Assembly (NCBI GenBank): GCA_046542715.1
Contig: JBKHAV010000001.1
Location: forward strand, 36,684-100,683
Source: Desulfovibrionales bacterium
Lineage (GTDB): Bacteria; Desulfobacterota; Desulfovibrionia; Desulfovibrionales; JBKHAV01
Reading direction: 5' to 3'
Length of the DNA stretch: 64,000 nucleotides
Both the position numbers and the translations under genes were made by a program. Of the stretch, positions 1,827-61,926 are shown piece after piece. A model generated the notes under the pieces. That model was given only the letters and a program-made list of their open reading frames with translations, was not told the origin of the DNA and searched no databases. Numbering within the stretch: the stretch's first letter is position 1; each line of letters opens with the position of its first letter.

Positions 1827-4223
1827 TCAGGACGCAGCCACCGCCCGGACCTGCCGAATGTCCGTCATGCCCATGAAAACCTTGAGAATGCCGTCCTGTT
1901 TCAAGGTGAGCATTCCGTCTTTAAGGGCTTCCTTTCGGATTTCCTCCGTGGGTTTTCGGGTCTTGATCATGAACTTTATGGGGTCGGTATTGAGCATGAG
2001 TTCGTGCACGCCGATCCGGCCCCGGTATCCCTGGTTGCACTGAGGGCATCCCTTGGCCCGAAAGAGCTTGGAATCATTTTTTTGGAAGATCGGGAGTACT
2101 CGTTCGTCAAATCCTGCACCGAACTCCTTTTTCAGGGTTTCCAGCTCCTCCTGGTCCGGGGTGTAGGGCTCTTTACAGCTGGAACACAGGGTCTTCATCA
2201 GCCGTTGGGCCAGGACGCAGATGAGCGAGTCCGCAAAATTGAAGGGATCGATTTTCATGTCCAAAAGACGGGTAATGGTCTCCGGGGCGGAGTTGGTGTG
2301 CAGGGTGGAAAAGACCAGATGGCCGGTCAGGGACGATTCCACGCCGATATGAGCCGTTTCCGAGTCGCGCATCTCCCCGATCATGATCACGTCCGGATCG
2401 GCCCGCAAAAACGAGCGCAAGGCCGAGGCAAAGGTCAGTCCAATTTTCGGGTTGATCTGGACCTGCCGCAGACCGTTCTGGGAAATTTCCACGGGATCCT
2501 CGGCCGTCCAGATCTTCCGCTCCGGGGTGTTGATATAGGAAAGGGCCGAGTGCAGGGTGGTGGTTTTCCCTGAACCCGTCGGGCCGACACACAGGATCAT
2601 GCCGTAAGGCTGGTAAATGCACTTCTTGAAATCTTCCATATTGTTTTCAAGAAGCCCGAGGCGCTCCAGGGGAAGCGGCTTGCCGGAAGCGAGCACGCGC
2701 AGGACCACGTCTTCCTGGCCCTCGATGGTGGGCAGGGTGGCGACGCGGTACTCCACCATCCGGTTGCGGTCCGGAAGCCTGATCTTGACCTTTCCGTCCT
2801 GGGGCAGTCTCCGTTCGGCAATGTCCAGGTGGGCCATGATCTTGATGCGGGAGACAATGGGCTTGGCCAGTCCGAGCCTGATCTTGCGGTACTCGTGGCA
2901 GGAGCCGTCCTCGCGGAACCGGATCAGACAGTACCGGTCCCTGGGGTTGGGCTCGATATGAATGTCTGAGACCCCTTTGCGCCACGCTTCCAGCAAAAGC
3001 GCGTTCACCAGCCTGACCACTTCGCTGTCTCCATGACTGAGGTGGTCTTCCTCATACTCGTACTCGAGATCCTGCCCTCCGTCCAAGGCCGCGTCGACAT
3101 CCAGGTCCTCGCCGAGCACGGAAAGTTCCTTGTCCGCGGACAAGGCCTTGTAGAAGTGCTCCACGAACTGGCTGATGTCTTCGGCCAAAGCGACCTTGAC
3201 ATCGATATTGCTGGTCTCGAACAGGAACTTGATCTCCCCCAGCTTGTCCAGGTCGTAGGGGTTGGCCATGAGGATCTCTATGGAGCGGCCGCCATGGGCA
3301 AAGGGCACCCATTGGGACCGCTTGAGAAAGTCGGGGTCGAGCTTCTTTTTTTCAAAAAGCTCAAACGGCGGCTCGATGGAACTCTGAAAGGGGACGTAGG
3401 GGACGTTGTAATATTCGCTCAAGGACTCGCCTAAATCCGCTTTGGAAATGCCGTAATCGCTGATCAGAAGATGATCCGGATCCTCCTGGCGCAGTTTGGC
3501 CTCGGCCAACACCTTCTTCAGCGTCTCCTGCGTGATTTTTCCTTCCCGGATCAGAAGGTCATAGCGACTCTTGGACTGGCCCTTGTCCTCCTCCAGGGGT
3601 TTGAGCTTATCTTCCAGCCCCGGGAAATCCTCGTCGATTCGCTTGACCTGCCACAGGGCCTGTCTGGCCTGGGTTTTCTTGTCCTGATGCAGATAGATGA
3701 TGCCCAACCTGTAATACAGCTTGGCTTGCTCCTCCTCCCGAAGCTCCGTCTCCTCCAGCACCTCCTTGATGAATCTGGCCTGCTCCTCCAGTCTGCCCTT
3801 CTTGTTCAGGCACTCGAGAATCAAATACGCCACCTTGTATTCCTTGAGCCCCTTCTCATAGGCCAGATTCAGATCATCCAGGGCCTTGTCGTATTCCCCC
3901 ACGTCCATGAGCGCTTCACCCCGAGAGCACAGCGCCTGGGGGGAAATCTCAGTTTTGACGACCTCTTCCACGACCTCCAGATCATCGTCTTCATACTTTT
4001 GTTGCAGTTCCCTGGCTCTGGACAGGTATCCCTTGAAAGTGCTTCTTCGTTCATCCCAGATTTTTTGGAATTCATGCGTACTGGCCAGGGAACCCGAATT
4101 TTCCAAATCATCCAGGGCATCCTGCGCCAGCTCAAGAGCTTCGCTCGAAAGCCCCTGCTCCAAATAGATCCGGATAGTCTTTTCATGTTTATCGAACTGC
4201 TGAATGAATTCTTCTCTGGTCAT
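1827..4223 (-). CDS. GspE/PilB-family secretion ATPase with N-terminal TPR region
   Basis: 798 aa. Walker A GPTGSGKTTT, Asp/His-box regions and a C-terminal tetracysteine (CSSCK...CPQCN). The central GspE_N-like segment is LLISDYGISKADLGESLSEYYNVPYV. The N-terminal ~230 aa are TPR-like helical repeats. Confidence 0.85.
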   Translation of the reverse strand: MTREEFIQQFDKHEKTIRIYLEQGLSSEALELAQDALDDLENSGSLASTHEFQKIWDERRSTFKGYLSRARELQQKYEDDDLEVVEEVVKTEISPQALCSRGEALMDVGEYDKALDDLNLAYEKGLKEYKVAYLILECLNKKGRLEEQARFIKEVLEETELREEEQAKLYYRLGIIYLHQDKKTQARQALWQVKRIDEDFPGLEDKLKPLEEDKGQSKSRYDLLIREGKITQETLKKVLAEAKLRQEDPDHLLISDYGISKADLGESLSEYYNVPYVPFQSSIEPPFELFEKKKLDPDFLKRSQWVPFAHGGRSIEILMANPYDLDKLGEIKFLFETSNIDVKVALAEDISQFVEHFYKALSADKELSVLGEDLDVDAALDGGQDLEYEYEEDHLSHGDSEVVRLVNALLLEAWRKGVSDIHIEPNPRDRYCLIRFREDGSCHEYRKIRLGLAKPIVSRIKIMAHLDIAERRLPQDGKVKIRLPDRNRMVEYRVATLPTIEGQEDVVLRVLASGKPLPLERLGLLENNMEDFKKCIYQPYGMILCVGPTGSGKTTTLHSALSYINTPERKIWTAEDPVEISQNGLRQVQINPKIGLTFASALRSFLRADPDVIMIGEMRDSETAHIGVESSLTGHLVFSTLHTNSAPETITRLLDMKIDPFNFADSLICVLAQRLMKTLCSSCKEPYTPDQEELETLKKEFGAGFDERVLPIFQKNDSKLFRAKGCPQCNQGYRGRIGVHELMLNTDPIKFMIKTRKPTEEIRKEALKDGMLTLKQDGILKVFMGMTDIRQVRAVAAS

Positions 4224-21457: not shown

Positions 21458-21514
21458 TAAAATGGTCTAAGTCTGAACTGCAGACCTCTCTGCAGTGCAG
21501 ACTTAGACCATTTT
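21458..21514 (-). other. Long composite hairpin in the aprA-qmoA spacer
   Basis: 17-bp arms AAAATGGTCTAAGTCTG / CAGACTTAGACCATTTT enclose an inner 7-bp stem CTGCAGA/TCTGCAG. Confidence 0.7.
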
Positions 21515-21547
21515 AAAAACGGCTGCGGGCGTTTACGCCCGCAGCCG
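21515..21547 (-). terminator. Intra-operon rho-independent terminator/attenuator after aprA
   Basis: The minus strand reads CGGCTGCGGGCG-taaa-CGCCCGCAGCCG followed by TTTTT, 12 nt after the aprA stop. Confidence 0.7.
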
Positions 21548-21559
21548 TAGTGATCCTTC

Positions 21560-23551
21560 CTAGTCAGGAATGATCTGGATGTAGGGTTTCTTGAAGATAG
21601 CGGTCTCACCCTTTTCCGGATCGTATTTGGAGTTGACGAAGCACTTCCACTTGGAATCATCCAAGCCCATGAAGTCTCCACGGTAGTAGAAGCCGGGGTA
21701 GCGGGACTCCTCACGGAAGTGGATGTGCTGCATGTGCAGCCGCACGGTCCACAGCCGGTGGAACTGCTCCCAGCAACGCATGAGTTCATGCAGGTCACGG
21801 GCGGCCAGCTTCTTGGAGTCCTCTTCCAGCATGTCGAGCAGCTTGAAGCCGGTCTCGAGCAGCGCCTTGGAAGTGGTGTAGTAGGTGCTGACGCCTCCGC
21901 CGTACTCGTCCGTCGCCTTGACCAGCCGCATCATGAAGTTCTTGGGGCTGATGAAGTTCGGGTTGATGACGGGGTCGGTGGAGATGGCCTTGCCCTCTTC
22001 GTAGTTGTACCAGGGCTGGTAGATCTCTTTCTTGAGCTCGTCAGCGGACTGCTTCAGCGTGGGCTTGAAATCCTTGTGGTCCACGCACCAGCGCACCATC
22101 TGCTTGCCGCAGATACGACCCTCGGCGTGGGAGCCGGAGGAGAACTTGTGACCGGAAGCGCCAACGCCGTCAGCGCAGGTGAACAGGCCGTTGACCGTAG
22201 TCATGCGGTTGTACACTTTGCCGTTGTCGGCCTTGATCTTGTACTCGTCAGGTACCCAGTCCAGATCCGGACCACTGACCCAGATGCCGCAGCAACCGGA
22301 GTGGGATCCGAGCAGGTAGGGCTCGGTGGGCATGATCTCGGAGCCGGTTTCCTCGGGCGCGATGTTCATGGCGGCCCACAGGTTGGCCTGCCCGACGCAC
22401 ATGTCGAGGAAGTCTTCCCATGCCTCGGACTCGAGGTGCTTCTGCTCCTGGGGAGAGAGCTCCTTGAAGGTGGTCTGCAGAGCGGTGGCGGTGTCCATGT
22501 AGATGGGGCCGCGACCTTCGCGCATTTCCCTGAGCATCATGTGGTTGCGCAGGCAGGTGGGAATGATGTTGCCCTTGGCGTAACCGCGATCCTCGTAAGG
22601 CTTCAACATGGCGCGGTTGGTTGCGCAGTAGTCTTCACCCTTGTAGTTCGTGGCCTTGGCCTTGAAGAGCAGGAACCAGGCGCCGACCGGGCCGTATCCG
22701 TCCTTGAAGCGGGCGGGGACGAACCGGTTCTCCATCATGGTCATCTCAGCGCCGACCTGGGCACACATGGTGTAGGTGGAACCGGCGTTCCATACGGGAT
22801 ACCAGGCGCGACCCATGCCCTCACCGGTGGACCGGGGGCGGTACACGTTCACAGCGCCGCCGCAGGCGACCAGAGCGGTGTTGCACTTGAAGATGTAAAC
22901 CTTGTTCTCGCGGGTGGAGAAGCCAACGGCACCGGCGATACGGTTGGGCTCGTTGGCATCCAGGAGCATCTTCACGATGAAGATGCGCTCCAGGTAACGG
23001 TCTTCGCCCAGGGCGTTCTTGGCCGCTTCGGCCACGATCACCTTGTAGGACTCACCGTTGATCATCATCTGCCAGCGACCGGAACGGACAGGCTGTGCGC
23101 CGGAGCGCAGGGACAGGCCGGCGGCCTTGGCCTGGGCGCCGTCGAGGTTCTTGCCGTCCTTCTTGACCCAGCAGGGAAGTCCCCACTCCTCAAAGAGGTG
23201 CACGGAATCGTCGACATGGGTTCCCAGGTCGAAGATGAGGTCTTCGCGGACGAGGCCCATCAGGTCGGTGCGGACCATGCGGACGTAGTCGTCCGGATCG
23301 TTTTCACCGAGATAGGTGTTGATGGCGGACAGACCCTGAGCCACAGCACCGGAGCGCTCCAGAGCAGCTTTGTCCACCAGCATGATCTTGAGGTCGCCGC
23401 CGACCTTGTCGGCCCAGCGGACAGCTTCGAAAGCTGCACCGCAGGTGCCCATGCCGCCACCCACCATGAGGATGTCAACGTCCTGTTCAACTATTTCTGG
23501 CTCAGCCAGAGCGAGCCCTTTGGGCTCTTCTTTCATGGGAATCCGAGGCAT
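21560..23551 (-). CDS. aprA: Adenylylsulfate (APS) reductase alpha subunit
   Basis: 663 aa. N-terminus MPRIPMKEEPKGLALAEPEIVEQDVDILMVGGGMGTCGAA, a flavoprotein of the fumarate reductase family. It sits next to aprB. Confidence 0.95.
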   Translation of the reverse strand: MPRIPMKEEPKGLALAEPEIVEQDVDILMVGGGMGTCGAAFEAVRWADKVGGDLKIMLVDKAALERSGAVAQGLSAINTYLGENDPDDYVRMVRTDLMGLVREDLIFDLGTHVDDSVHLFEEWGLPCWVKKDGKNLDGAQAKAAGLSLRSGAQPVRSGRWQMMINGESYKVIVAEAAKNALGEDRYLERIFIVKMLLDANEPNRIAGAVGFSTRENKVYIFKCNTALVACGGAVNVYRPRSTGEGMGRAWYPVWNAGSTYTMCAQVGAEMTMMENRFVPARFKDGYGPVGAWFLLFKAKATNYKGEDYCATNRAMLKPYEDRGYAKGNIIPTCLRNHMMLREMREGRGPIYMDTATALQTTFKELSPQEQKHLESEAWEDFLDMCVGQANLWAAMNIAPEETGSEIMPTEPYLLGSHSGCCGIWVSGPDLDWVPDEYKIKADNGKVYNRMTTVNGLFTCADGVGASGHKFSSGSHAEGRICGKQMVRWCVDHKDFKPTLKQSADELKKEIYQPWYNYEEGKAISTDPVINPNFISPKNFMMRLVKATDEYGGGVSTYYTTSKALLETGFKLLDMLEEDSKKLAARDLHELMRCWEQFHRLWTVRLHMQHIHFREESRYPGFYYRGDFMGLDDSKWKCFVNSKYDPEKGETAIFKKPYIQIIPD

Positions 23552-34660: not shown

Positions 34661-35278
34661 TTACTCGGCCTGCTTGTCCTTGCCGTTCTTCCTGGCCCAC
34701 CAGCAACGGTCCTTTCCCAGAAACCACCAGTCTGTGTGATCGGTACGGGCGATCTGTCTGGCCAGATCCTTTCCGAAATCCGTTCGCAGCCGCTCCAGAG
34801 CGCAGTCCATCCACTTGGCTGCGTAGCGGTTCCCAAGATCGAACTGTTCTTTGAGGTTCAATATGAGGTCGATCTGGTCGGCGTCCTGGGCCAGGGCCGC
34901 TTCCACGCTTTCGACAGCTTCGAGTTCGTGGTGCAGGGCCACGATCCCGTCCAGCCCCGTGCCCTCCACCGCATCCTTCAAAGCGGCTTCACCATCCCCT
35001 GTGTTGTAGATCTTGTTGACGTAATTGAAATCTCCGACCCGGCTCTCGTGCAAATCGTGAAACAGACAGAGCATCACGGTTCGGGCCACGTCCGCGCCGG
35101 TCTTTTCCGCCAGGACATACCCGATGACCGCTGTGCGGAAGGAATGCTCGGCTACGTTCTCCTGCCCGGTTCCCAGAAATTGATATCCCGTGCGGGGCGT
35201 TTTTCTGAGCATGCCGACTTCAAACAGAAAATCAGCCAACCGCTTCCAGTTGATACTTTTTGATTGGTCATCCGTCAT
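34661..35278 (-). CDS. HD-domain phosphohydrolase (YfbR-like)
   Basis: Metal-binding pattern NVAEHSF...LFHDLHESRVGD (H...HD...D). Confidence 0.8.
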   Translation of the reverse strand: MTDDQSKSINWKRLADFLFEVGMLRKTPRTGYQFLGTGQENVAEHSFRTAVIGYVLAEKTGADVARTVMLCLFHDLHESRVGDFNYVNKIYNTGDGEAALKDAVEGTGLDGIVALHHELEAVESVEAALAQDADQIDLILNLKEQFDLGNRYAAKWMDCALERLRTDFGKDLARQIARTDHTDWWFLGKDRCWWARKNGKDKQAE

Positions 35279-35322
35279 GTTTTCCCGTCCTTAAAGCAAA
35301 CGATTACAAGCTTGTGCGATTA

Positions 35323-35351
35323 GAGCAAGCAGGAAACAGCAAGCAACAGGC
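35323..35351. repeat. Left arm of the inverted low-complexity repeat (GCAAGCAGGAAACAGCA...)
   Basis: 35325-35341 is the perfect reverse complement of 35589-35605. Confidence 0.8.
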
Positions 35352-35560
35352 TGGCAGAGAAGAACCGCGAATCTAATGCAGACTCAACGTCGTCTCCTGG
35401 TCTTTCTCTTGCTTCCCATTGCTCAAGAACTGCCGGCTCCTATTATCGTGGTGTGTTTTTATTTGTCCCTGGACCAGCACGCAACAGGCAAGAAAAAACA
35501 TAGCGTGCAGATATGCACTCCCCAGGCATTTTCATCGCGACCACGCGGACGCTCCACTCC

Positions 35561-35610
35561 GCCTGCTTGCTGTTTCCTGTTTCCTGTTTGCTGTTTCCTG
35601 CTTGCGTGCT
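35561..35610. repeat. 7-nt-periodic GTTTCCT/GTTTGCT array (right arm), abutting the argJ stop
   Basis: Sequence gcctgcttgctgtttcctgtttcctgtttgctgtttcctgcttgcgtgct ends at 35610. The argJ stop codon is 35611-35613. Confidence 0.8.
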
Positions 35611-36792
35611 TTACGTCCTGTACTCCGCGTTGATGCGCACGTATTCGTGGGTCAAATCAGAGGTAAGCAGGGTGTAGTGGCCTGTTCCCTCCCGCAGGTC
35701 CACATGGATTTCGATATCCTTGCGGGAGAGATAGACGGCGAAAACCGCATCTCTGTCCATGGCAACGGGGCGGCCATGGCTGAATATCAAAATATTTGCC
35801 AGCCGGATTTGTACCCGGTCCGGATCAAAAGCCGCTCCGCTTCGTCCCAGGGCGGCCACGATTCGGCCCCAGTTCGGGTCCTGACCGAACATTGCCGTCT
35901 TGACCAGGGGTGAGTGGCCGATGGTCCGGGCCGCTCTTTCCGCATCCCGGTCGTCAACGCCACCGGTGACCCTGATGGTCACCACTTTGGTTCCACCCTC
36001 GGCATCCTGGACGATACGATAGGAAAGCTCCCGGCACACCGCGACGAGACCGTGTCTGAGAGACTCCCGGCTCTCCCCTGTGGCGTTCACCCTTGAGGCG
36101 CTGTTTGCCAGCCCGATCACACAGTCGTTCGTGCTGGTGTCGCCGTCAACGGTCACGGCATTGAAGCTTTTGTCCACGGCCTGTGCAATCGTTTCCTGCC
36201 ACCAGGAACGGTCCACATCTGCATCGCACAGCACGAACCCGAGCATGGTCGCCATATTCGGGCAGATCATGCCCGCCCCTTTGGCCATGCCCAGGATGGT
36301 GATCTCGCCATCGACCGTTTGGACCGTGCGCCAGACCATCTTCGGGAATGAGTCCGTGGTCATGATCGCCTTGGCTGCGTCCATGGGTGTTTTTTGCCCG
36401 AGGTTTTGGATCAGTGCCGGAACCGCCCGTTCCCACAGTTCCATCTTGAGGTGATCGCCGATGACACCTGTCGACGCCGGAAGGAGGGAACCCGGCTCAA
36501 CACCTAAAGCTTCCGCTGTCATTTGCAGTGTCCTGCGGCAGTCAGCAATACCTTGCGCCCCGGTGCAGGCATTGGCCTGTCCCGCATTGACGAGAATCCC
36601 CCTGAGTCCGGCACCTTCGGACAGAAGTTCCTTGGCCACGATAACCGGCGCGGCCTGAAACCTGTTGGTAGTGAAAACCGCTGCCCCGGCCGCCTCAACA
36701 TCACTGAACAGGAGGGCAAGATCGTCCCTGTTTGTGTATTTGAAACCCGCTTGCGCTGTGGAAAACCGGTAGCCCTTTGGAATCGCGATCAC
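35611..36792 (-). CDS. argJ: Bifunctional glutamate N-acetyltransferase / amino-acid acetyltransferase ArgJ
   Basis: ArgJ signatures include the autoprocessing region ATMLGFVLCDA. A GTG start at 36792 (VIAIPKGYRF) follows AGGAGA. The ORF-track start at 37035 is rejected. Confidence 0.88.
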   Translation of the reverse strand: MIAIPKGYRFSTAQAGFKYTNRDDLALLFSDVEAAGAAVFTTNRFQAAPVIVAKELLSEGAGLRGILVNAGQANACTGAQGIADCRRTLQMTAEALGVEPGSLLPASTGVIGDHLKMELWERAVPALIQNLGQKTPMDAAKAIMTTDSFPKMVWRTVQTVDGEITILGMAKGAGMICPNMATMLGFVLCDADVDRSWWQETIAQAVDKSFNAVTVDGDTSTNDCVIGLANSASRVNATGESRESLRHGLVAVCRELSYRIVQDAEGGTKVVTIRVTGGVDDRDAERAARTIGHSPLVKTAMFGQDPNWGRIVAALGRSGAAFDPDRVQIRLANILIFSHGRPVAMDRDAVFAVYLSRKDIEIHVDLREGTGHYTLLTSDLTHEYVRINAEYRT

Positions 36793-36866
36793 TTCCGTCT
36801 CCTGCGTATGAAATTGAGGGTGCGCCGGCCGGCTTGCAAACGATCCGGCTGAGGAAGGTTTTTCAT
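36789..36866 (-). CDS. Candidate 25-codon upstream ORF (MKNLPQPDRLQAGRRTLNFIRRRRK) coupled to argJ
   Basis: The ATG is preceded by GAAGGAGAT. The stop TGA overlaps the argJ GTG (GTGA). It ends in four consecutive Arg codons. Confidence 0.25.
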   Translation of the reverse strand: MKNLPQPDRLQAGRRTLNFIRRRRK

Positions 36867-37222
36867 ATCTCCTTCGCTCTGCGCGTGCAATGCACTTCTC
36901 ACGTTGCAGGGCGCTGCTGCCTTGTTCAAGAGCCAAAACAGCGGCATGTCCCTTAAAGGGATGAAATGGTGGGATCGGTCGCTGAAGATCAAAGGCTGAG
37001 AACTCGGCAATTGAACACAGCCGGCAGAAAGGCAAAACGATCCAGGAGAACCCGCAAGACCCGTTTCCACGGCACCGGTCATGATTTCAGCAACGCAACA
37101 CGTCGTCCAAGAATGAGTCCTGCAGGCCTATGGTGATGAGAGCCTCCGGCATTTGCTGGAGATTTCAACGAGCAAATCGTTTTCAACCCTGAACCGCTCT
37201 TCCCGCGGTCGGATCGATCAGC

Positions 37223-37246
37223 GGCGGGCCGAACCTTCGGCCCGCC
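37223..37246. other. GC-rich palindromic stem-loop downstream of the MTH1187-like gene
   Basis: GGCGGGCCG-aacctt-CGGCCCGCC. There is no flanking U-tract. Confidence 0.5.
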
Positions 37247-37287
37247 TTGGAAAGCACAGGGTGCACACCTCTGCCCAGACAGCGGGG

Positions 37288-37702: not shown

Positions 37703-37733
37703 AAAAAAGCCCGGAGATCTTCCGGGCTTTTTC
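37703..37733 (-). terminator. Rho-independent terminator of secA
   Basis: The minus strand reads GCCCGGA-agatc-TCCGGGC followed by TTTTTT. Confidence 0.8.
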
Positions 37734-37735
37734 AA

Positions 37736-37811
37736 CGATTCAAAATTCGTTGATTCGTTGATTCGTCAATCCCCCAATTCGGAATTCGCCAATTCACAAC
37801 TCCCCAATTCC
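37736..37811. repeat. Low-complexity GAAT/CAATTC periodic array (family member B) in the secA 3' UTR
   Basis: Sequence cgattcaaaattcgttgattcgttgattcgtcaatcccccaattcggaattcgccaattcacaactccccaattcc directly abuts the secA stop (37812-37814). Confidence 0.7.
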
Positions 37812-40316
37812 TCAATTCCCACAACATTTCTTATGCTTTTTCCCTGAGCCGCAGGGGCAGGGTTCGTTGCGTCCCACCTTGGGGGCGGCTCTCTTGACGG
37901 TCTTGGGTGCCGACGCTTCCGCACTTGCCGAATAGTTGAGCTGTTTGGGCTGATCGTCGTGCTTGAATTCCTCTTCCTCCACCTTCTGGAGTTTCAACCG
38001 GGACAGGGAGCGCAGCGTGTTTTCCTTGATTCTAAAGAGCATGTCCTGGAAAAGTTCGAACCCCTCGCGCTTGTACTCCTGCTTGGGATCCTTTTGCCCG
38101 TACCCCCGCAGCCCGATGCCCTCTTTGAGGTGGTCCATGTTCAGCAGGTGTTCCTTCCAGTTGCGGTCCAGGCTTTCCAGCATGAAAAACCGCAAAATCT
38201 CCGGGTAATGGTCCTGGCTTTCGGATTTGAGGCGGGACAGCGTGGCCTTGATCCGCTCCTGCGCTTCCTCCCGATCCGGCAGGGGGTCGTCCCCATCCTG
38301 GGAAAATCCAAAAGCGAATATTTCGTCGAGCTTGCTCTTGACCATATCTGTCATTTCCGGATCGACTTTGCCCTTGCCGTCTTCGATCGGGGCATAGACC
38401 TCGTCCAGGAGATCGCCGACAAATTCGAGCACCAGATCCTCGAGATTGTCAGATCCCATGACCTCCCGCCGCTGGGAGTAGATGACAGTACGCTGCTGAT
38501 TCATGACGTCGTCATACTCGAGCAGCTGTTTTCTGATTTCGAAGTTGTGTCCTTCCACCCGGCGCTGGGCGTTTTCAATGGCCCGGGAAACCATCTTGTT
38601 TTCAATGGCCTGACCTTCCTCCATGCCCAGTTTTTCCATGAGCCCTGACATACGGTCCGAACCGAAGAGGCGGAGCAGATCGTCATCCATGGCCAGGTAG
38701 AACCGCGAACTCCCCGGATCCCCCTGGCGGCCGGACCGGCCCCGGAGCTGATTGTCGATGCGCCGACTCTCGTGCCGCTCCGTGCCCAGAATATGCAGCC
38801 CCCCTGCCTCCCGCACGCCGTCGCCGAGCACGATGTCCGTACCCCGGCCGGCCATGTTCGTGGCGATGGTCACTTTGCCCTTTTTCCCGGCATCTGCCAC
38901 GATTTCAGCCTCTCGCTCATGGTGCTTGGCGTTGAGCACGTCGTGGGGAACCTTGAGCTTTTTGAGATGCCTGGAGATGAGTTCGGACTTGTCGATGGAG
39001 GTGGTTCCGACCAGAACCGGCTGCCCTTTTTTGTGCAACTCGGTGATGTCCTGGCTGATGGACTCATATTTTTCAGCCTGGGTTCGAAACACGAGATCCG
39101 GATAGTCCTGCCGAATCATGGTCTTGTGCGTGGGGATCACCAGGACGTCGAGATCGTAGATCTGCTTGAATTCCACCGACTCCGTATCAGCGGTACCGGT
39201 CATGCCGGCGAGTTTTTCGTACATGCGAAAATAGTTCTGAAAGGTGATGGAGGCCAGAGTCTGGTTTTCCGCCTCCACCTTGACCCCCTCCTTCGCCTCC
39301 AGGGCCTGGTGCAGACCGTCTGAATACCGCCGTCCCGGCATGAGCCGGCCCGTGAACTCATCCACGATGACCACCTGACCTTCCGTGACGATGTAGTCCA
39401 CATCCACATTGAACAGCTGATGCGCCTTGAGGGCCTGCAGGATATGGTGCTGGACCGTGATATTGCGCGGGTCGAAAAGGTTGTCCACGCCCAGAATTTC
39501 CTCGCACCGGACCACACCGTCGTCGGTCAGGGCCACGGCCTTGGCCTTTTCGTCTACTGTGAAGTCCCGCTCCTTTTTCAAACGGGGGATGATGGAGTTG
39601 ATCTGCACGTAAAGCGACGTGGATTTTTCCCCGGGTCCGGAAATGATAAGTGGCGTTCGAGCTTCGTCGATAAGAATGGAGTCCACTTCGTCCACTATGG
39701 CGAAGTGAAGATCGCGCTGTACGAGCTGCTCGATATAAAATTTCATGTTGTCCCGGAGATAATCGAACCCGAACTCGTTGTTCGTTCCGTAGGTAACGTC
39801 CGAACGGTACGCCTCCTGCCGCTGCTTGTCGTTCAGCCCGTGGACGATCGTGCCCACGGAAAGCCCCAGAAATTGATACAACTGGCCCATCCATTCGGCA
39901 TCTCGACGGGCCAGATAATCGTTGACCGTAATCAGGTGCACCCCTTTGCCGGTCAAGGCATTGAGGACCACGGGCAGGGTGGCCACCAGGGTTTTCCCCT
40001 CGCCGGTTTTCATTTCCGCGATCTTGCCCTGGTGCAGGACCATGCCGCCGATGAGCTGAACGTCGAAATGGCGCATCTGCAACCGGCGCAGGGACGCCTC
40101 CCGAACCAGGGCAAAAACCTCTGGTGCCAGTGAGTCCAGGTTGCGGCCATTGGCCACTTCCTGCTTCCATTGCACAATTTTCGAGGGAAACTCCTCGTCC
40201 TTCAACGCCTTCATCTGTGGTTCGAGGCCGTTGACCTGGTCCACAAAAGGTTGAATGGCCTTGATTTGCCGATCATTTTTCGATCCAAATATTTTTTTCG
40301 CCAGTGCGTTAATCAT
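37812..40316 (-). CDS. secA: Preprotein translocase ATPase SecA
   Basis: 834 aa. Walker [14 protein letters not shown]-like [11 protein letters not shown], and a C-terminal zinc finger [14 protein letters not shown]. Confidence 0.97.
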
Positions 40317-49304: not shown

Positions 49305-49320
49305 ATGAACGCTCCGGGAA

Positions 49321-49377
49321 TCAGAAATCCGAAATTCAAAATTCAAAATCCGAAGCTCGAAATCCGAAATTCGAAAC
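49321..49377. repeat. Left arm: 8-nt-periodic array (CGAAATYC units)
   Basis: Sequence tcagaaatccgaaattcaaaattcaaaatccgaagctcgaaatccgaaattcgaaac is an imperfect reverse complement of the right arm. Confidence 0.8.
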
Positions 49378-49490
49378 AAATGCAGAAGAGACGAAGACTT
49401 CCGACCGAATCAGGTATCAACGAACATCAGCCAGAACATCACCGAAGCCGAATCGGAACTTCTGCCTTTCGGATTTCTGCCTTTCTGTTT

Positions 49491-49581
49491 TGTTTCGAAT
49501 TTCGAATTTCGAATTTCGGATTTCAGATTTCGGATTTCGAATTTCGAATTTCTCTTTTCATTTTGAATTTCGAATTTCTCT
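49491..49581. repeat. Right arm: 8-nt-periodic TTCGAA array abutting the smpB stop
   Basis: Sequence tgtttcgaatttcgaatttcgaatttcggatttcagatttcggatttcgaatttcgaatttc... carries six TTCGAA palindromes in 8-bp phase. The smpB stop is 49582-49584. Confidence 0.85.
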
Positions 49582-60487: not shown

Positions 60488-60523
60488 GTTTCGAATTTCG
60501 TATTTCGAGTTTCGAATTTCGTT
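60488..60523. repeat. 8-nt-periodic TTCGAA array (family member D)
   Basis: Sequence gtttcgaatttcgtatttcgagtttcgaatttcgtt lies 2 nt from the stop (60526-60528) of the bEBP gene. Confidence 0.75.
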
Positions 60524-60525
60524 CC

Positions 60526-61926
60526 TCAAGGAATATCCATCCCCTGTTTCCGATACTCGTTGAGCTTGTTGCGGAGGGTGCGCACGGATATCCCCAGGAG
60601 CTGCGATGCCTGTGTCCTGTTGCCTTCGGTATGGTCCAGGCTTTTCATGATCATTTTCTGTTCCATGACATGCAAGGGAACAAGCTCCATGGCATCCTCG
60701 GCGGCAACAGCGATTCCCTGCCCCCCATTGCCGGTCCCTTCCACCCCGAGTTCACCTTCCGGAAGCCATTGTCCATCCTCGATCAAAAAATGCCTCGGCT
60801 GCACAGGACCCTTTCCGGCGAGGAGCACGGCGCGCTCCATGAGGTTTTGCAGCTCCCGGACATTTCCAGGCCATGAATACTCAAGCAGCCACTGTCTCGC
60901 GTCTGCGCCAAGCTCCAGAGGTGCAAGCCCGTACTCCCGGCAGTATCGCCGAATAAAAAAACCGGCCAGGGGAAGGATGTCCTCTTTGCGCTCCCGAAGC
61001 GGGGGCAGCTTGATGGGGATCACGTTCAACCTGTAATAGAGGTCCTGCCGGAAGTTGCCCTGTTCCACGGACTCTTCCAGATTGCGGTTCGTGGTGGCCA
61101 GCACCCTGACGTCCACGGGAATGGTCTCTGTTCCGCCAACCCGGTCGATCTCCCCTTCCTGCAGGACCCGCAGGAGCTTGGCCTGCAGCCCGATATCCAT
61201 CTCTGAAATTTCGTCCAGGAGAATCGTTCCCCTGGCGGCGAGTTCGAATCGTCCCGGCTTTCTGCTGACAGCTCCGGTAAAAGCCCCTTTTTCATGACCG
61301 AAAAGCTCGCTCTCCAGCAGATGCTCTGGAAGCGCGGCGCAGTTGATGGCGATGAAGGGACCCTTTTCTCTGGGGCTGTGGCCGTGGACATAGCGGGCGA
61401 TCATTTCCTTCCCGGTGCCGGACTCTCCGGAAATGAGCACCGTGGCCTTGGACGGGGCGATCTGCCGGGCCAGGGCAAGCACCCGCTGCATGACGGGATG
61501 CTCGGCAATGATGGTGTGATCTTTCTTCGGGGGGGTGGTTTGCCGGGGGGGTGCAGGCTCGGCCCGGCTCGGGAGCACGGTCGCCATTTTTTCCCAGGTG
61601 AGCGGAGTGAGCCAGTAATCCTTGGCGCCCATTTCCATCAGCCGCTGTGCTTCACTGGCCGAACCCTGCCGGGTGCATACCACGACAGGCGGAAATGCCT
61701 CGGTTCCGTTCGCCTCCTTGAGCAGGGAGTCGACTCTGTACCCCGGAAGCGCCGCCTGGGAGAAGACGAGCGCAGGCCTGCTCTTCTGAATGTAGTGGAG
61801 GGCTCCCTGCAGACTGTCTGCTAGTCCCACATCGATCTGCTCCTCCCTGAACCGGGTGATGAGATCGGTGATTTCCTCCGACCGGCCCACAAAGAGGATG
61901 GTCAATCGTGACATAGCCCTGCTCAT
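60526..61926 (-). CDS. Sigma54-dependent transcriptional activator (NtrC family) with a degenerate receiver domain
   Basis: AAA+ Walker A GESGTGKE, the GAFTGA loop, and a C-terminal Fis-type HTH NRTQASQLLGISVRTLRNKL. The N-terminal REC-like domain lacks the conserved acidic residues. Start options are 61926, 61914 and 61992. Confidence 0.85.
   Translation of the reverse strand: MSRAMSRLTILFVGRSEEITDLITRFREEQIDVGLADSLQGALHYIQKSRPALVFSQAALPGYRVDSLLKEANGTEAFPPVVVCTRQGSASEAQRLMEMGAKDYWLTPLTWEKMATVLPSRAEPAPPRQTTPPKKDHTIIAEHPVMQRVLALARQIAPSKATVLISGESGTGKEMIARYVHGHSPREKGPFIAINCAALPEHLLESELFGHEKGAFTGAVSRKPGRFELAARGTILLDEISEMDIGLQAKLLRVLQEGEIDRVGGTETIPVDVRVLATTNRNLEESVEQGNFRQDLYYRLNVIPIKLPPLRERKEDILPLAGFFIRRYCREYGLAPLELGADARQWLLEYSWPGNVRELQNLMERAVLLAGKGPVQPRHFLIEDGQWLPEGELGVEGTGNGGQGIAVAAEDAMELVPLHVMEQKMIMKSLDHTEGNRTQASQLLGISVRTLRNKLNEYRKQGMDIP

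Follow-up and report, generated by a model that had tools for sequence, protein, structure and literature searches.

A heptamer array anchored at the argJ stop codon and its distant inverted partner in a Desulfovibrionales bacterium: a possible intercistronic RNA hairpin

Aklujkar et al. (2009, PMC2700814) reported class 1-3 "predicted global regulator binding sites" in Geobacter metallireducens. These sites consist of four tandem octamers (GTTGCTYN) or five tandem heptamers (MTYCTGA), are "mostly found in pairs", with the two members on opposite strands and a distance that varies, and were assigned, as a speculation, to IHF/HU; class 1 sites were also found to have insertion sequence (IS) elements inserted at a set distance (PMC2700814). 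The class 3 pairs are 75-115 nt apart, and six of the eight lie 3' of gene N and 5' of gene N+1, as in moaA/mosC, cbiG/cobQ and proB/proA, the other two being placed between convergent genes (PMC2700814, Figure S5 and Table S4). Those listed for class 2, hdrB/hdrA among them, resemble the class 3 pairs. The paired arrays of Geobacter have stayed unexplained in annotation since 2009. Here, a related layout is described in a 64,000-nt stretch (56.8% G+C; hereafter the window) of the genome of a Desulfovibrionales bacterium (contig JBKHAV010000001.1). The 332-nt spacer between two co-directional genes, argJ and a gene for an HD_3-domain phosphohydrolase (the HD gene), is taken up entirely by a tandem heptamer array that starts at the argJ stop codon, an inverted partner near the HD gene start, and a unique core. 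We read this element, tentatively, as an intercistronic RNA hairpin similar to the repetitive extragenic palindromes (REPs) and bacterial interspersed mosaic elements (BIMEs) of Escherichia coli.

REPs are single imperfect palindromes with one genome-wide consensus and hundreds of copies, linked to REP-associated tyrosine transposases (RAYTs). The stem-loops of REPs and BIMEs stabilise upstream cistrons by protecting the message from 3' exonucleases, and Liang, Rudd and Deutscher are said to have found in 2015 that REPs within ~15 nt of a stop codon perturb termination. The REPINs of Pseudomonas were described by Bertels and Rainey (2011, PMC3116915). As regards short tandem units, Mrazek et al. 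(2007), in the summary given by MacGregor (2015, PMC4679880), found heptanucleotides to be the commonest long simple-sequence repeats and suggested polymerase slippage. MacGregor (PMC4679880) reported TAACTGA arrays that precede start codons in Beggiatoaceae, for which S1, Csp, and CsrA were proposed as binders; only one indirect repeat was reported in the BOGUAY TAACTGA sets. In E. coli assays, deletion of the TTTTGAA/TTCAAAA repeats of Nostoc PCC 7120 led to stronger activation of the recO promoter by NtcA and made its repression by LexA possible (bioRxiv 10.1101/2022.06.06.494920).

Tandem Repeats Finder (TRF) reports a period-7 array at 35562-35600 with 5.6 copies of the unit CCTGTTT (84% matches, score 57), together with a period-14 version at 35577-35605, and a repeat search shows that the array doubles as a 21-nt tandem duplication (35562-35582 / 35583-35603, 90% identical). 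Both confirm the 7-nt array abutting the argJ stop codon that a first-pass annotation had noticed from the sequence. The onset lies 5 nt past the stop; with the degenerate unit AGCACGC included, it coincides with the stop. Read in the mRNA sense, the array is GCAAGCAGGAAACAGCAAACAGGAAACAGGAAACAGCAAGCAGG, which contains CAGGAAAC three times (ACAGGAAAC twice) and one CAGGCGG, so that the earlier count of three to four units was roughly right. A degenerate 3-unit heptamer pattern gave seven matches in three spacers, the argJ spacer included, vs. 0.00 expected from 100 shuffles. The exact-seed scan reveals a perfect inverted repeat of 18 bp (35325-35342 vs. 35588-35605) and a second register of 16 bp that pairs 35330-35345 with 35564-35579; the extended arms (35324-35359 vs. 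35557-35592) span 36 nt with 81% complementarity. The perfect inverted partner of the first-pass annotation is therefore real, with a length of 18 bp and not 17, and its distance to the HD gene ATG, estimated at ~45 nt, turned out to be 46 nt. The chance expectation of such 18-mers within 800 nt in 64 kb is ~7e-4 (64000 x 800 / 4^18), and the argJ element is far beyond chance. The coordinates of all features are collected in Table 1. The two copies of a 15-nt direct repeat (35337-35351 / 35475-35489; CAGCAAGCAACAGGC / CAGCACGCAACAGGC) lie at the inner edge of the distal arm and mid-core, respectively, and the reverse complement of the repeat holds GTTGCTTG, a match to the class 1 octamer consensus GTTGCTYN of Geobacter.

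Table 1. Features of the argJ-HD spacer, followed by the other stop-adjacent arrays of the window (positions are those of the window)
Feature	Positions	Strand	Description
ArgJ gene	35611-36792 (ORF 35611-37035)	minus	Pfam ArgJ domain runs to the last residue
argJ stop codon UAA	35611-35613	minus	start point of array and outer helix
Stop-proximal arm	35557-35610	minus	7-nt-period array; mRNA-sense units GCAAGCA/GGAAACA/GCAAACA
Unique core	35360-35556	minus	197 nt between extended arms, 245 nt between perfect 18-mers
Weak terminator-like hairpin GUGCA-UAUC-UGCAC	35495-35518 (hairpin 35505-35518)	minus	consensus scan
Sigma-70-like match GGGACA-16-GATAAT, 9 of 12	35442-35469	minus	consensus scan, consensus match only
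Distal inverted arm	35324-35359	minus	inverted repeats; can pair in two registers with the duplicated array
Outer 7-bp helix (predicted)	UAAAGCA 35607-35613 (stop + 4 nt) with UGCUUUA 35292-35298	minus	minimum free energy and centroid structures
HD gene start codon AUG	35276-35278	minus	N-terminus agrees with orthologues in L087, L088, L090
HD_3-domain phosphohydrolase gene	34661-35278	minus	Pfam HD_3
smpB element	49319-49578	minus	smpB stop 49582; (GAAATYC)n array 49493-49578; ~100-nt core; inverted array 49319-49376
secA array, 8-nt units GGAATTGG, ACGAATCA	37745-37821	minus	starts at secA stop 37812-37814; intrinsic terminator 37704-37732 after
Sigma-54 activator array (CGAAATT)n	60489-60521	minus	abuts stop 60526-60528; no distant partner
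Degenerate array AAATTCGAAAA / CCGAAATTCGAAAC	1770-1826	minus	after stop of T2SSE-type ATPase gene 1827-4223

The same spacer was recovered in five other independent assemblies, and a sixth (L084) has its HD-proximal 96 nt only. The six assemblies with the locus are 99.6-99.9% identical to the window at the DNA level, the argJ gene end is called identically in L081-L086, and the assemblies with an identical HD protein reveal just two single-nucleotide polymorphisms (SNPs) in the spacer. Because it is present in six independent assemblies, the argJ element is not an assembly artefact. The arrays are stable in copy number among six strains with up to 19 SNPs in ~6 kb, which argues against a phase-variation switch. 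In the comparison of L083 with the window over 6.1 kb, 10 of the 19 SNPs and the only indel fall within ~110 nt (37142-37251); this local hypervariable patch lies in the 495-nt spacer leading from a thiamine-binding-protein gene to argJ.

The fold of the minus-strand spacer RNA had been suggested in the first-pass annotation as a check. The 335-nt mRNA-sense spacer gave a minimum free energy (MFE) of -116.8 kcal/mol (z = -2.67), with the arm stem closing the whole region. The HD-side strand of the outer helix overlaps the first base of the HD Shine-Dalgarno (SD) sequence AAGGA (35288-35292). The arm duplex alone is predicted at -60.2 kcal/mol on the mRNA strand vs. -57.4 kcal/mol on the plus strand. 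We infer that argJ and the HD gene are co-transcribed, now or formerly, and that in vivo the arms would pair in the transcript, giving a stem of ~-60 kcal/mol that starts from the argJ stop codon and loops out the spacer. Such a stem may block 3'-to-5' exonucleases and thereby stabilise the upstream argJ message, may present an obstacle beside the terminating ribosome, and may set the expression of the downstream HD gene, via either read-through or a weak internal promoter. Replication slippage is the most likely origin of the arrays, and the likeness of the arms could be maintained by intramolecular template switching.

The argJ spacer is one of several loci of this kind. The 90 nt past every plausible stop codon in the window were inspected, and this census, of the sort that the first-pass annotation had called for, added four arrays to that of argJ, one of them with an inverted partner. 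All five arrays have a period of 7-8 nt and start 0-14 nt past a stop codon, and two of the five (argJ and smpB) have inverted partners. The density is 7.8 arrays per 100 kb vs. 0.76 per 100 kb, i.e., ~10-fold higher than in a control made up of 795 kb around the ArgJ genes of 80 other genomes; none of the control arrays in these 795 kb has a period of 7. The smpB element, the second locus with the same layout and an unrelated unit that the earlier reading had announced, does exist and is the largest of the class: its array is 86 nt long with an onset 4 nt past the stop, its inverted array abuts the GGAG ribosome-binding site (RBS) of a GlcD-like gene (FAD oxidase), and its arm duplex is predicted at -72.0 kcal/mol on the mRNA strand vs. 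-67.1 kcal/mol on the plus strand. Neither a promoter- nor a terminator-like site was found in the smpB core, which is what a co-transcribed hairpin would be expected to show. A second 8-mer array, TTCTGCCT, lies within this core at 49460-49487. SmpB is the partner of tmRNA, and no tmRNA gene was detected near its gene. A core shared by the argJ and smpB elements was considered and rejected, since the local alignment scores equal those of shuffled sequences. With five stop-adjacent arrays of different units, unrelated cores, and no further copy of the argJ core in the window or the fetched loci, the suggestion of a structural class in place of a fixed-sequence mobile element has held up. Arrays of the TTCGAAA type occur at three to four loci in the window, as arrays and not as one fixed palindrome.

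Three cases, and L088 in addition, have the array placed between a stop codon and an intrinsic terminator, i.e., in the 3' untranslated region. The array after the ATPase gene shows a period-7 autocorrelation of 0.55 and is followed by an intrinsic terminator at 1689-1725 (inverted repeat 1689-1704 / 1710-1725). On the plus strand, a tRNA-Ser (CGA) gene (1570-1665) is convergent with this ATPase gene, and the hairpin 1689-1725 between them is a bidirectional terminator hairpin. In the secA 3' flank of L088 (4111-4300), a GAAATTC array comes after the stop and is separated by a 50-nt core from its inverted partner, with a canonical terminator behind them; in L087 the terminator stands alone. 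The array of the secA 3' flank is thus positionally recurrent in the lineage of the window and in L088, and its sequence is not conserved. Downstream of a minus-strand gene ending at 21560, the segment 21458-21548 contains a GC-rich terminator-type hairpin (21519-21532 / 21535-21548), after which comes a second inverted repeat, a perfect one of 18 bp with a 22-nt loop (21458-21475 / 21498-21515).

The gene order argJ-HD is kept in a sister clade with 66-67% ArgJ identity. The sister spacers measure 9 nt in L087, 125 nt in L088, where a 9-mer array of TCCATTCCG is present, and 186 nt in L090, where a non-array hairpin begins 2 nt past the argJ stop. The conserved order and the 9-nt spacing in L087 suggest that argJ and the HD gene are probably an operon pair. 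Because the sister spacers are 9, 125, and 186 nt long, the 332-nt element is a recent lineage-specific gain that is dispensable for either gene. The inverted-repeat geometry is not conserved in the nearest available relatives, one of the outcomes that the first-pass annotation had said would refute its reading. In the ArgJ protein search the identity falls from 100% straight to 67%, and a scan of genome contigs with ArgJ yielded nothing above 56% identity.

The core of the argJ element was compared with known RNA families and other DNA. At gathering thresholds, Rfam 15 matched no family to the argJ element in the window, and at E<=10 the segment 35150-35750 gave only two chance-level matches, both to unrelated families. 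No second copy of the core was found by blastn in the window or in the fetched loci, and no further copy of an arm or the core is present in the 64 kb of the window plus 8 kb more of the same genome, the latter being a tight operon free of arrays. No similarity to the element was found in phage DNA. The sole match in plasmid DNA is that of the array to a (TTTCCTG)n array of Vibrio parahaemolyticus plasmids, 38 nt long and partnerless. In plasmid pva2 (NZ_CP097872.1, ~36816-37016; L292 1040-1240), the (TTTCCTG)n array is 89.5% identical to the argJ array over these 38 nt and sits in an unannotated intergenic region of ~950 nt, 120 nt past a (TTCTGG)n hexamer array; no inverted partner of the pva2 array was seen. 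The likeness between the two is probably convergent, not homologous.

A coding role of the core was rejected: its 42-aa and 85-aa open reading frames (ORFs) have no Pfam match, and the 42-aa frame, the sole ATG ORF of the core, loses its stop codon to a strain SNP. The terminator-like hairpin has a 5-bp stem and a U-run only after 6 nt, and so is not a canonical terminator. An intrinsic terminator formed by the arms was also rejected, since they are at least 197 nt apart and no U-tract follows. The consensus scan found one sigma-70-like match vs. 0.4 expected, and this site might serve the HD gene as an internal promoter. A sigma-54 promoter was dismissed, as the best candidate found by eye, TGCCAG-N5-TGCT, lacks GG.

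Outside the window, a metagenome scan for (TYCGAAA)3 matched at least 120 contigs from many habitats. Among the matches listed, ~15 of 129 arrays have an inverse array 37-150 nt away. Several arrays visibly bracket whole spacers, for example in L217, between convergent stops, in L175, between co-directional genes, and in L181, L213, and L279, next to start codons. The last three contigs are unrelated and have near-identical arm sequences (GAATTTCGAATTTCGAATGAAGAAT...). The hairpin adjoining their start codons (L181 1010-1090, L213 3007-3107, L279 199-306) reads (GAATTTC)n-GAATGAAGAAT...ATTCTTCATTC-(GAAATTC)n and looks like a multicopy family derived from one heptamer. At all window loci and in L088, the A-rich arrays have the same orientation to the gene upstream of them, a rule that turned out not to be general: for the 129 metagenome arrays among the matches listed, the stop of the upstream ORF is in the TYCGAAA sense in 19 cases and in the opposite sense in 31. 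The degenerate heptamer scan of viral contigs gave 77 matches, all unrelated. Taken by its layout, the same architecture with other units appears in this genome, in the sister lineage, in Geobacter, and in metagenomes.

Several lines of evidence speak for the intercistronic RNA hairpin. The arm stem of the MFE and centroid structures, with an outer helix that spans the stop codon and touches the SD sequence, supports it. The slightly better mRNA-strand duplex at argJ and smpB and the stop adjacency of all five arrays are counted in its favour, and the Geobacter class 2 and 3 pairs between operon partners (proB/proA, hdrB/hdrA) are counted as precedent. In L083, the sole change in the outer-helix region is C35296 to U (mRNA sense), converting G-C to G-U. 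RNA pairing would tolerate this change on the mRNA strand only, and as a single event it is weak evidence. Other observations weigh against the hairpin. The plus-strand fold is similar (-110.7 kcal/mol) and has the better z (-4.33 vs. -2.67), the duplex-energy advantage of the mRNA strand is small, and the counts of G-U pairs favour neither strand. A strand assignment by G-U pairs and duplex energy was tried, and the result is too close to call. The argJ spacer of L088 shows no significant fold (z = +0.7), and the relatives that do differ (66% ArgJ identity) are without the element and too distant for covariation. If the terminator-like and promoter-like sites of the core were used, the arms would be on separate transcripts. 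Finally, 18% of the listed metagenome arrays lie <=6 nt from the stop of an ORF of >=80 codons vs. 6% under random placement, so that among the matches listed stop adjacency is enriched just 2-3-fold, and these matches show both arm orders and both orientations to genes.

The element may instead be a neutral by-product of slippage of 7-nt units and of template-switch inverted copies, tolerated in non-coding spacers with no selected function; we consider this possible, if on the unlikely side. Units of 7 nt are the size class most prone to slippage according to Mrazek et al. (2007), again as summarised in PMC4679880, and in some genomes arrays of heptamers make up a common mutational class. Array density behaves as a property of the lineage (7.8 vs. 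0.76 per 100 kb), the units vary by locus, the cores are unrelated, and a recent 21-nt tandem duplication can be seen in the proximal arm. Moreover, the element is absent from all available relatives and the L087 spacer is of 9 nt, hence its dispensability. However, slippage alone explains neither the ~200-nt unique core nor the stop-codon onset of all five arrays, and it leaves unexplained the position of the partner at the opposite extreme of the spacer, beside the RBS. It also sits poorly with the constant copy number in six strains with up to 19 SNPs in 6 kb and with the recurrence of the bracket layout in Geobacter and metagenomes.

Binding at the DNA level is an unlikely explanation. Here an array-recognising protein, a nucleoid-associated or global regulator, would loop or insulate the spacer, as was proposed with IHF/HU for Geobacter. 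The architecture is strand-symmetric, either strand reading as a purine-rich arm, the core, and a pyrimidine-rich arm; the fold energies are alike on both strands, and a promoter-like site lies between the arms. Precedents are the explicit Geobacter proposal with IS elements at a fixed distance from class 1 sites (PMC2700814) and the altered NtcA/LexA effect on the recO promoter upon heptamer deletion in Nostoc (bioRxiv 10.1101/2022.06.06.494920). Yet the units are wholly different among loci (CAGGAAA, CGAAATT, GGAATTGG) and unreadable by one protein, with a period of 7 bp neighbouring sites would face different sides of the helix, a placement next to stop codons makes no obvious sense at the DNA level, and the IHF/HU assignment is itself a speculative proposal only.

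It is quite improbable that a non-autonomous mobile element of the foldback, miniature inverted-repeat transposable element (MITE), or REPIN type, with terminal inverted repeats of short tandem units, has inserted between argJ and the HD gene. The terminal inverted arms and unique core fill a spacer that is of just 9 nt in L087, arms of the TTCGAAA type recur at three to four window loci, and the near-identical arms of L181, L213, and L279 are what multicopy elements would have. But no target-site duplication was found, the flanks ...GATTAG/A and C/GTGCTTTA not being direct repeats when read by eye, no second arm or core copy occurs in the 64 kb + 8 kb of genome, and the cores of the two paired elements, argJ and smpB, are unrelated.

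The first-pass annotation had taken the (ACAGGAAAC)n array for a cluster of A(N)GGA motifs that would bind or titrate a regulator of the CsrA/RsmA type. CsrB repeats read CAGGA(U/A/C)G, which the argJ motifs resemble, and the 7-nt spacing of the array is shorter than the distance bridged by a CsrA dimer. Three CAGGAAAC motifs and one CAGGCGG fall within 45 nt, two of the three array motifs are ~50% unpaired in the ensemble (P(unpaired) of the array GGA of 0.08, 0.51, and 0.49 in the full-length fold), and CsrA-like proteins are among the suggested binders of the Beggiatoaceae arrays (PMC4679880). This explanation is nonetheless very improbable and is not supported by the comparison: there is no match to a Csr/Rsm RNA in Rfam even at E<=10, GGA is only mildly enriched (12 occurrences over 335 nt, against 7.2 +/- 2.3 after shuffling, with only three in the array; 1 per 28 nt, ~2 sd above composition), the array starts directly after a stop codon and lacks its own promoter, regular GGA is missing from the sister elements with TTCGAAA and GAATTGG units, and tblastn with the E. 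coli and Bacillus subtilis CsrA queries found no csrA in the 64-kb window.

If the RNA-hairpin reading is correct, REP-like tuning inside operons would operate in this lineage and in Geobacter, built from slippage-prone heptamer arrays. The stem would be easily lengthened, shortened, and re-registered, thereby acting as an evolvable dial between neighbouring genes. The present analysis adds that the layout reaches Desulfovibrio-like bacteria and many environmental contigs, does not depend on a particular unit, and in this genome is tied to stop codons. A broader proposal, improbable in our estimate, is that stop-anchored heptamer-array foldbacks are a widespread and so far unrecognised operon punctuation in Desulfobacterota and other environmental bacteria, setting the relative expression of neighbouring cistrons. 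Their reader would be a dedicated protein or the terminating ribosome; the unit would be free to vary, since nothing but the periodic, slippable stem would matter. The Geobacter class 1-3 pairs, the five window loci, and the (TYCGAAA)n pairs of metagenomes would then be examples. Should the arrays be a mere mutational by-product, they still mark a lineage that forms short-period arrays at ~10 times the usual rate.

Among the known systems, CsrB/RsmY/RsmZ share with the argJ array the repetition of CAGGA-containing motifs in an A-rich context. Unlike them, the argJ array has no family match and few motifs, which are mostly in or beside a long predicted stem, and no promoter-like site upstream, the only match being downstream, inside the core. 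Compared with MITEs and foldback elements, the argJ element has the terminal inverted repeats but not the multiple copies, none being present in the window or in the loci. The non-coding argJ array qualifies as a heptanucleotide long simple-sequence repeat in the sense of Mrazek et al. (2007), a class of tandem arrays with 5-11-nt units that exceed the length expected for the genome. It is also similar to the cyanobacterial (TTTTGAA/TTCAAAA) and Beggiatoaceae arrays in having a 7-nt unit, a few to a dozen copies, an intergenic position by gene ends, and a lineage-specific abundance. The cyanobacterial and Beggiatoaceae arrays have a suspected regulatory role, are mostly just upstream of starts or promoters, and use one unit genome-wide; in contrast, those of the window have their onset at stop codons, and an inverted partner at a distance is present for two of the five.

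Like the REP/BIME of E. coli and the REPINs, the argJ element is extragenic and intercistronic, an inverted pair that folds into a predicted long hairpin near a stop codon, and, like REPs, it is lineage-specific and dispensable at the locus. Unlike those of REPs, its arms are tandem heptamer arrays of locus-specific sequence, of which no second copy occurs in 72 kb. The Geobacter classes are multicopy with one consensus each, whereas the argJ unit (GTTTCCT / GYTTGCT) is locus-specific, again with no second copy in 72 kb. The argJ core (197-245 nt) is about twice as large as the pair distance of 75-115 nt in Geobacter, the host order differs, and the resemblance of the units is loose, being that of GTTGCTTG in the distal arm. 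As in Geobacter class 1 and 3, however, the argJ array is made of tandem 7-nt units (5.6 copies by TRF) and has an inverted partner, the two arms lying downstream of one gene and upstream of its neighbour. One Geobacter B site also adjoins the RBS of the gene that follows, just as the smpB element does.

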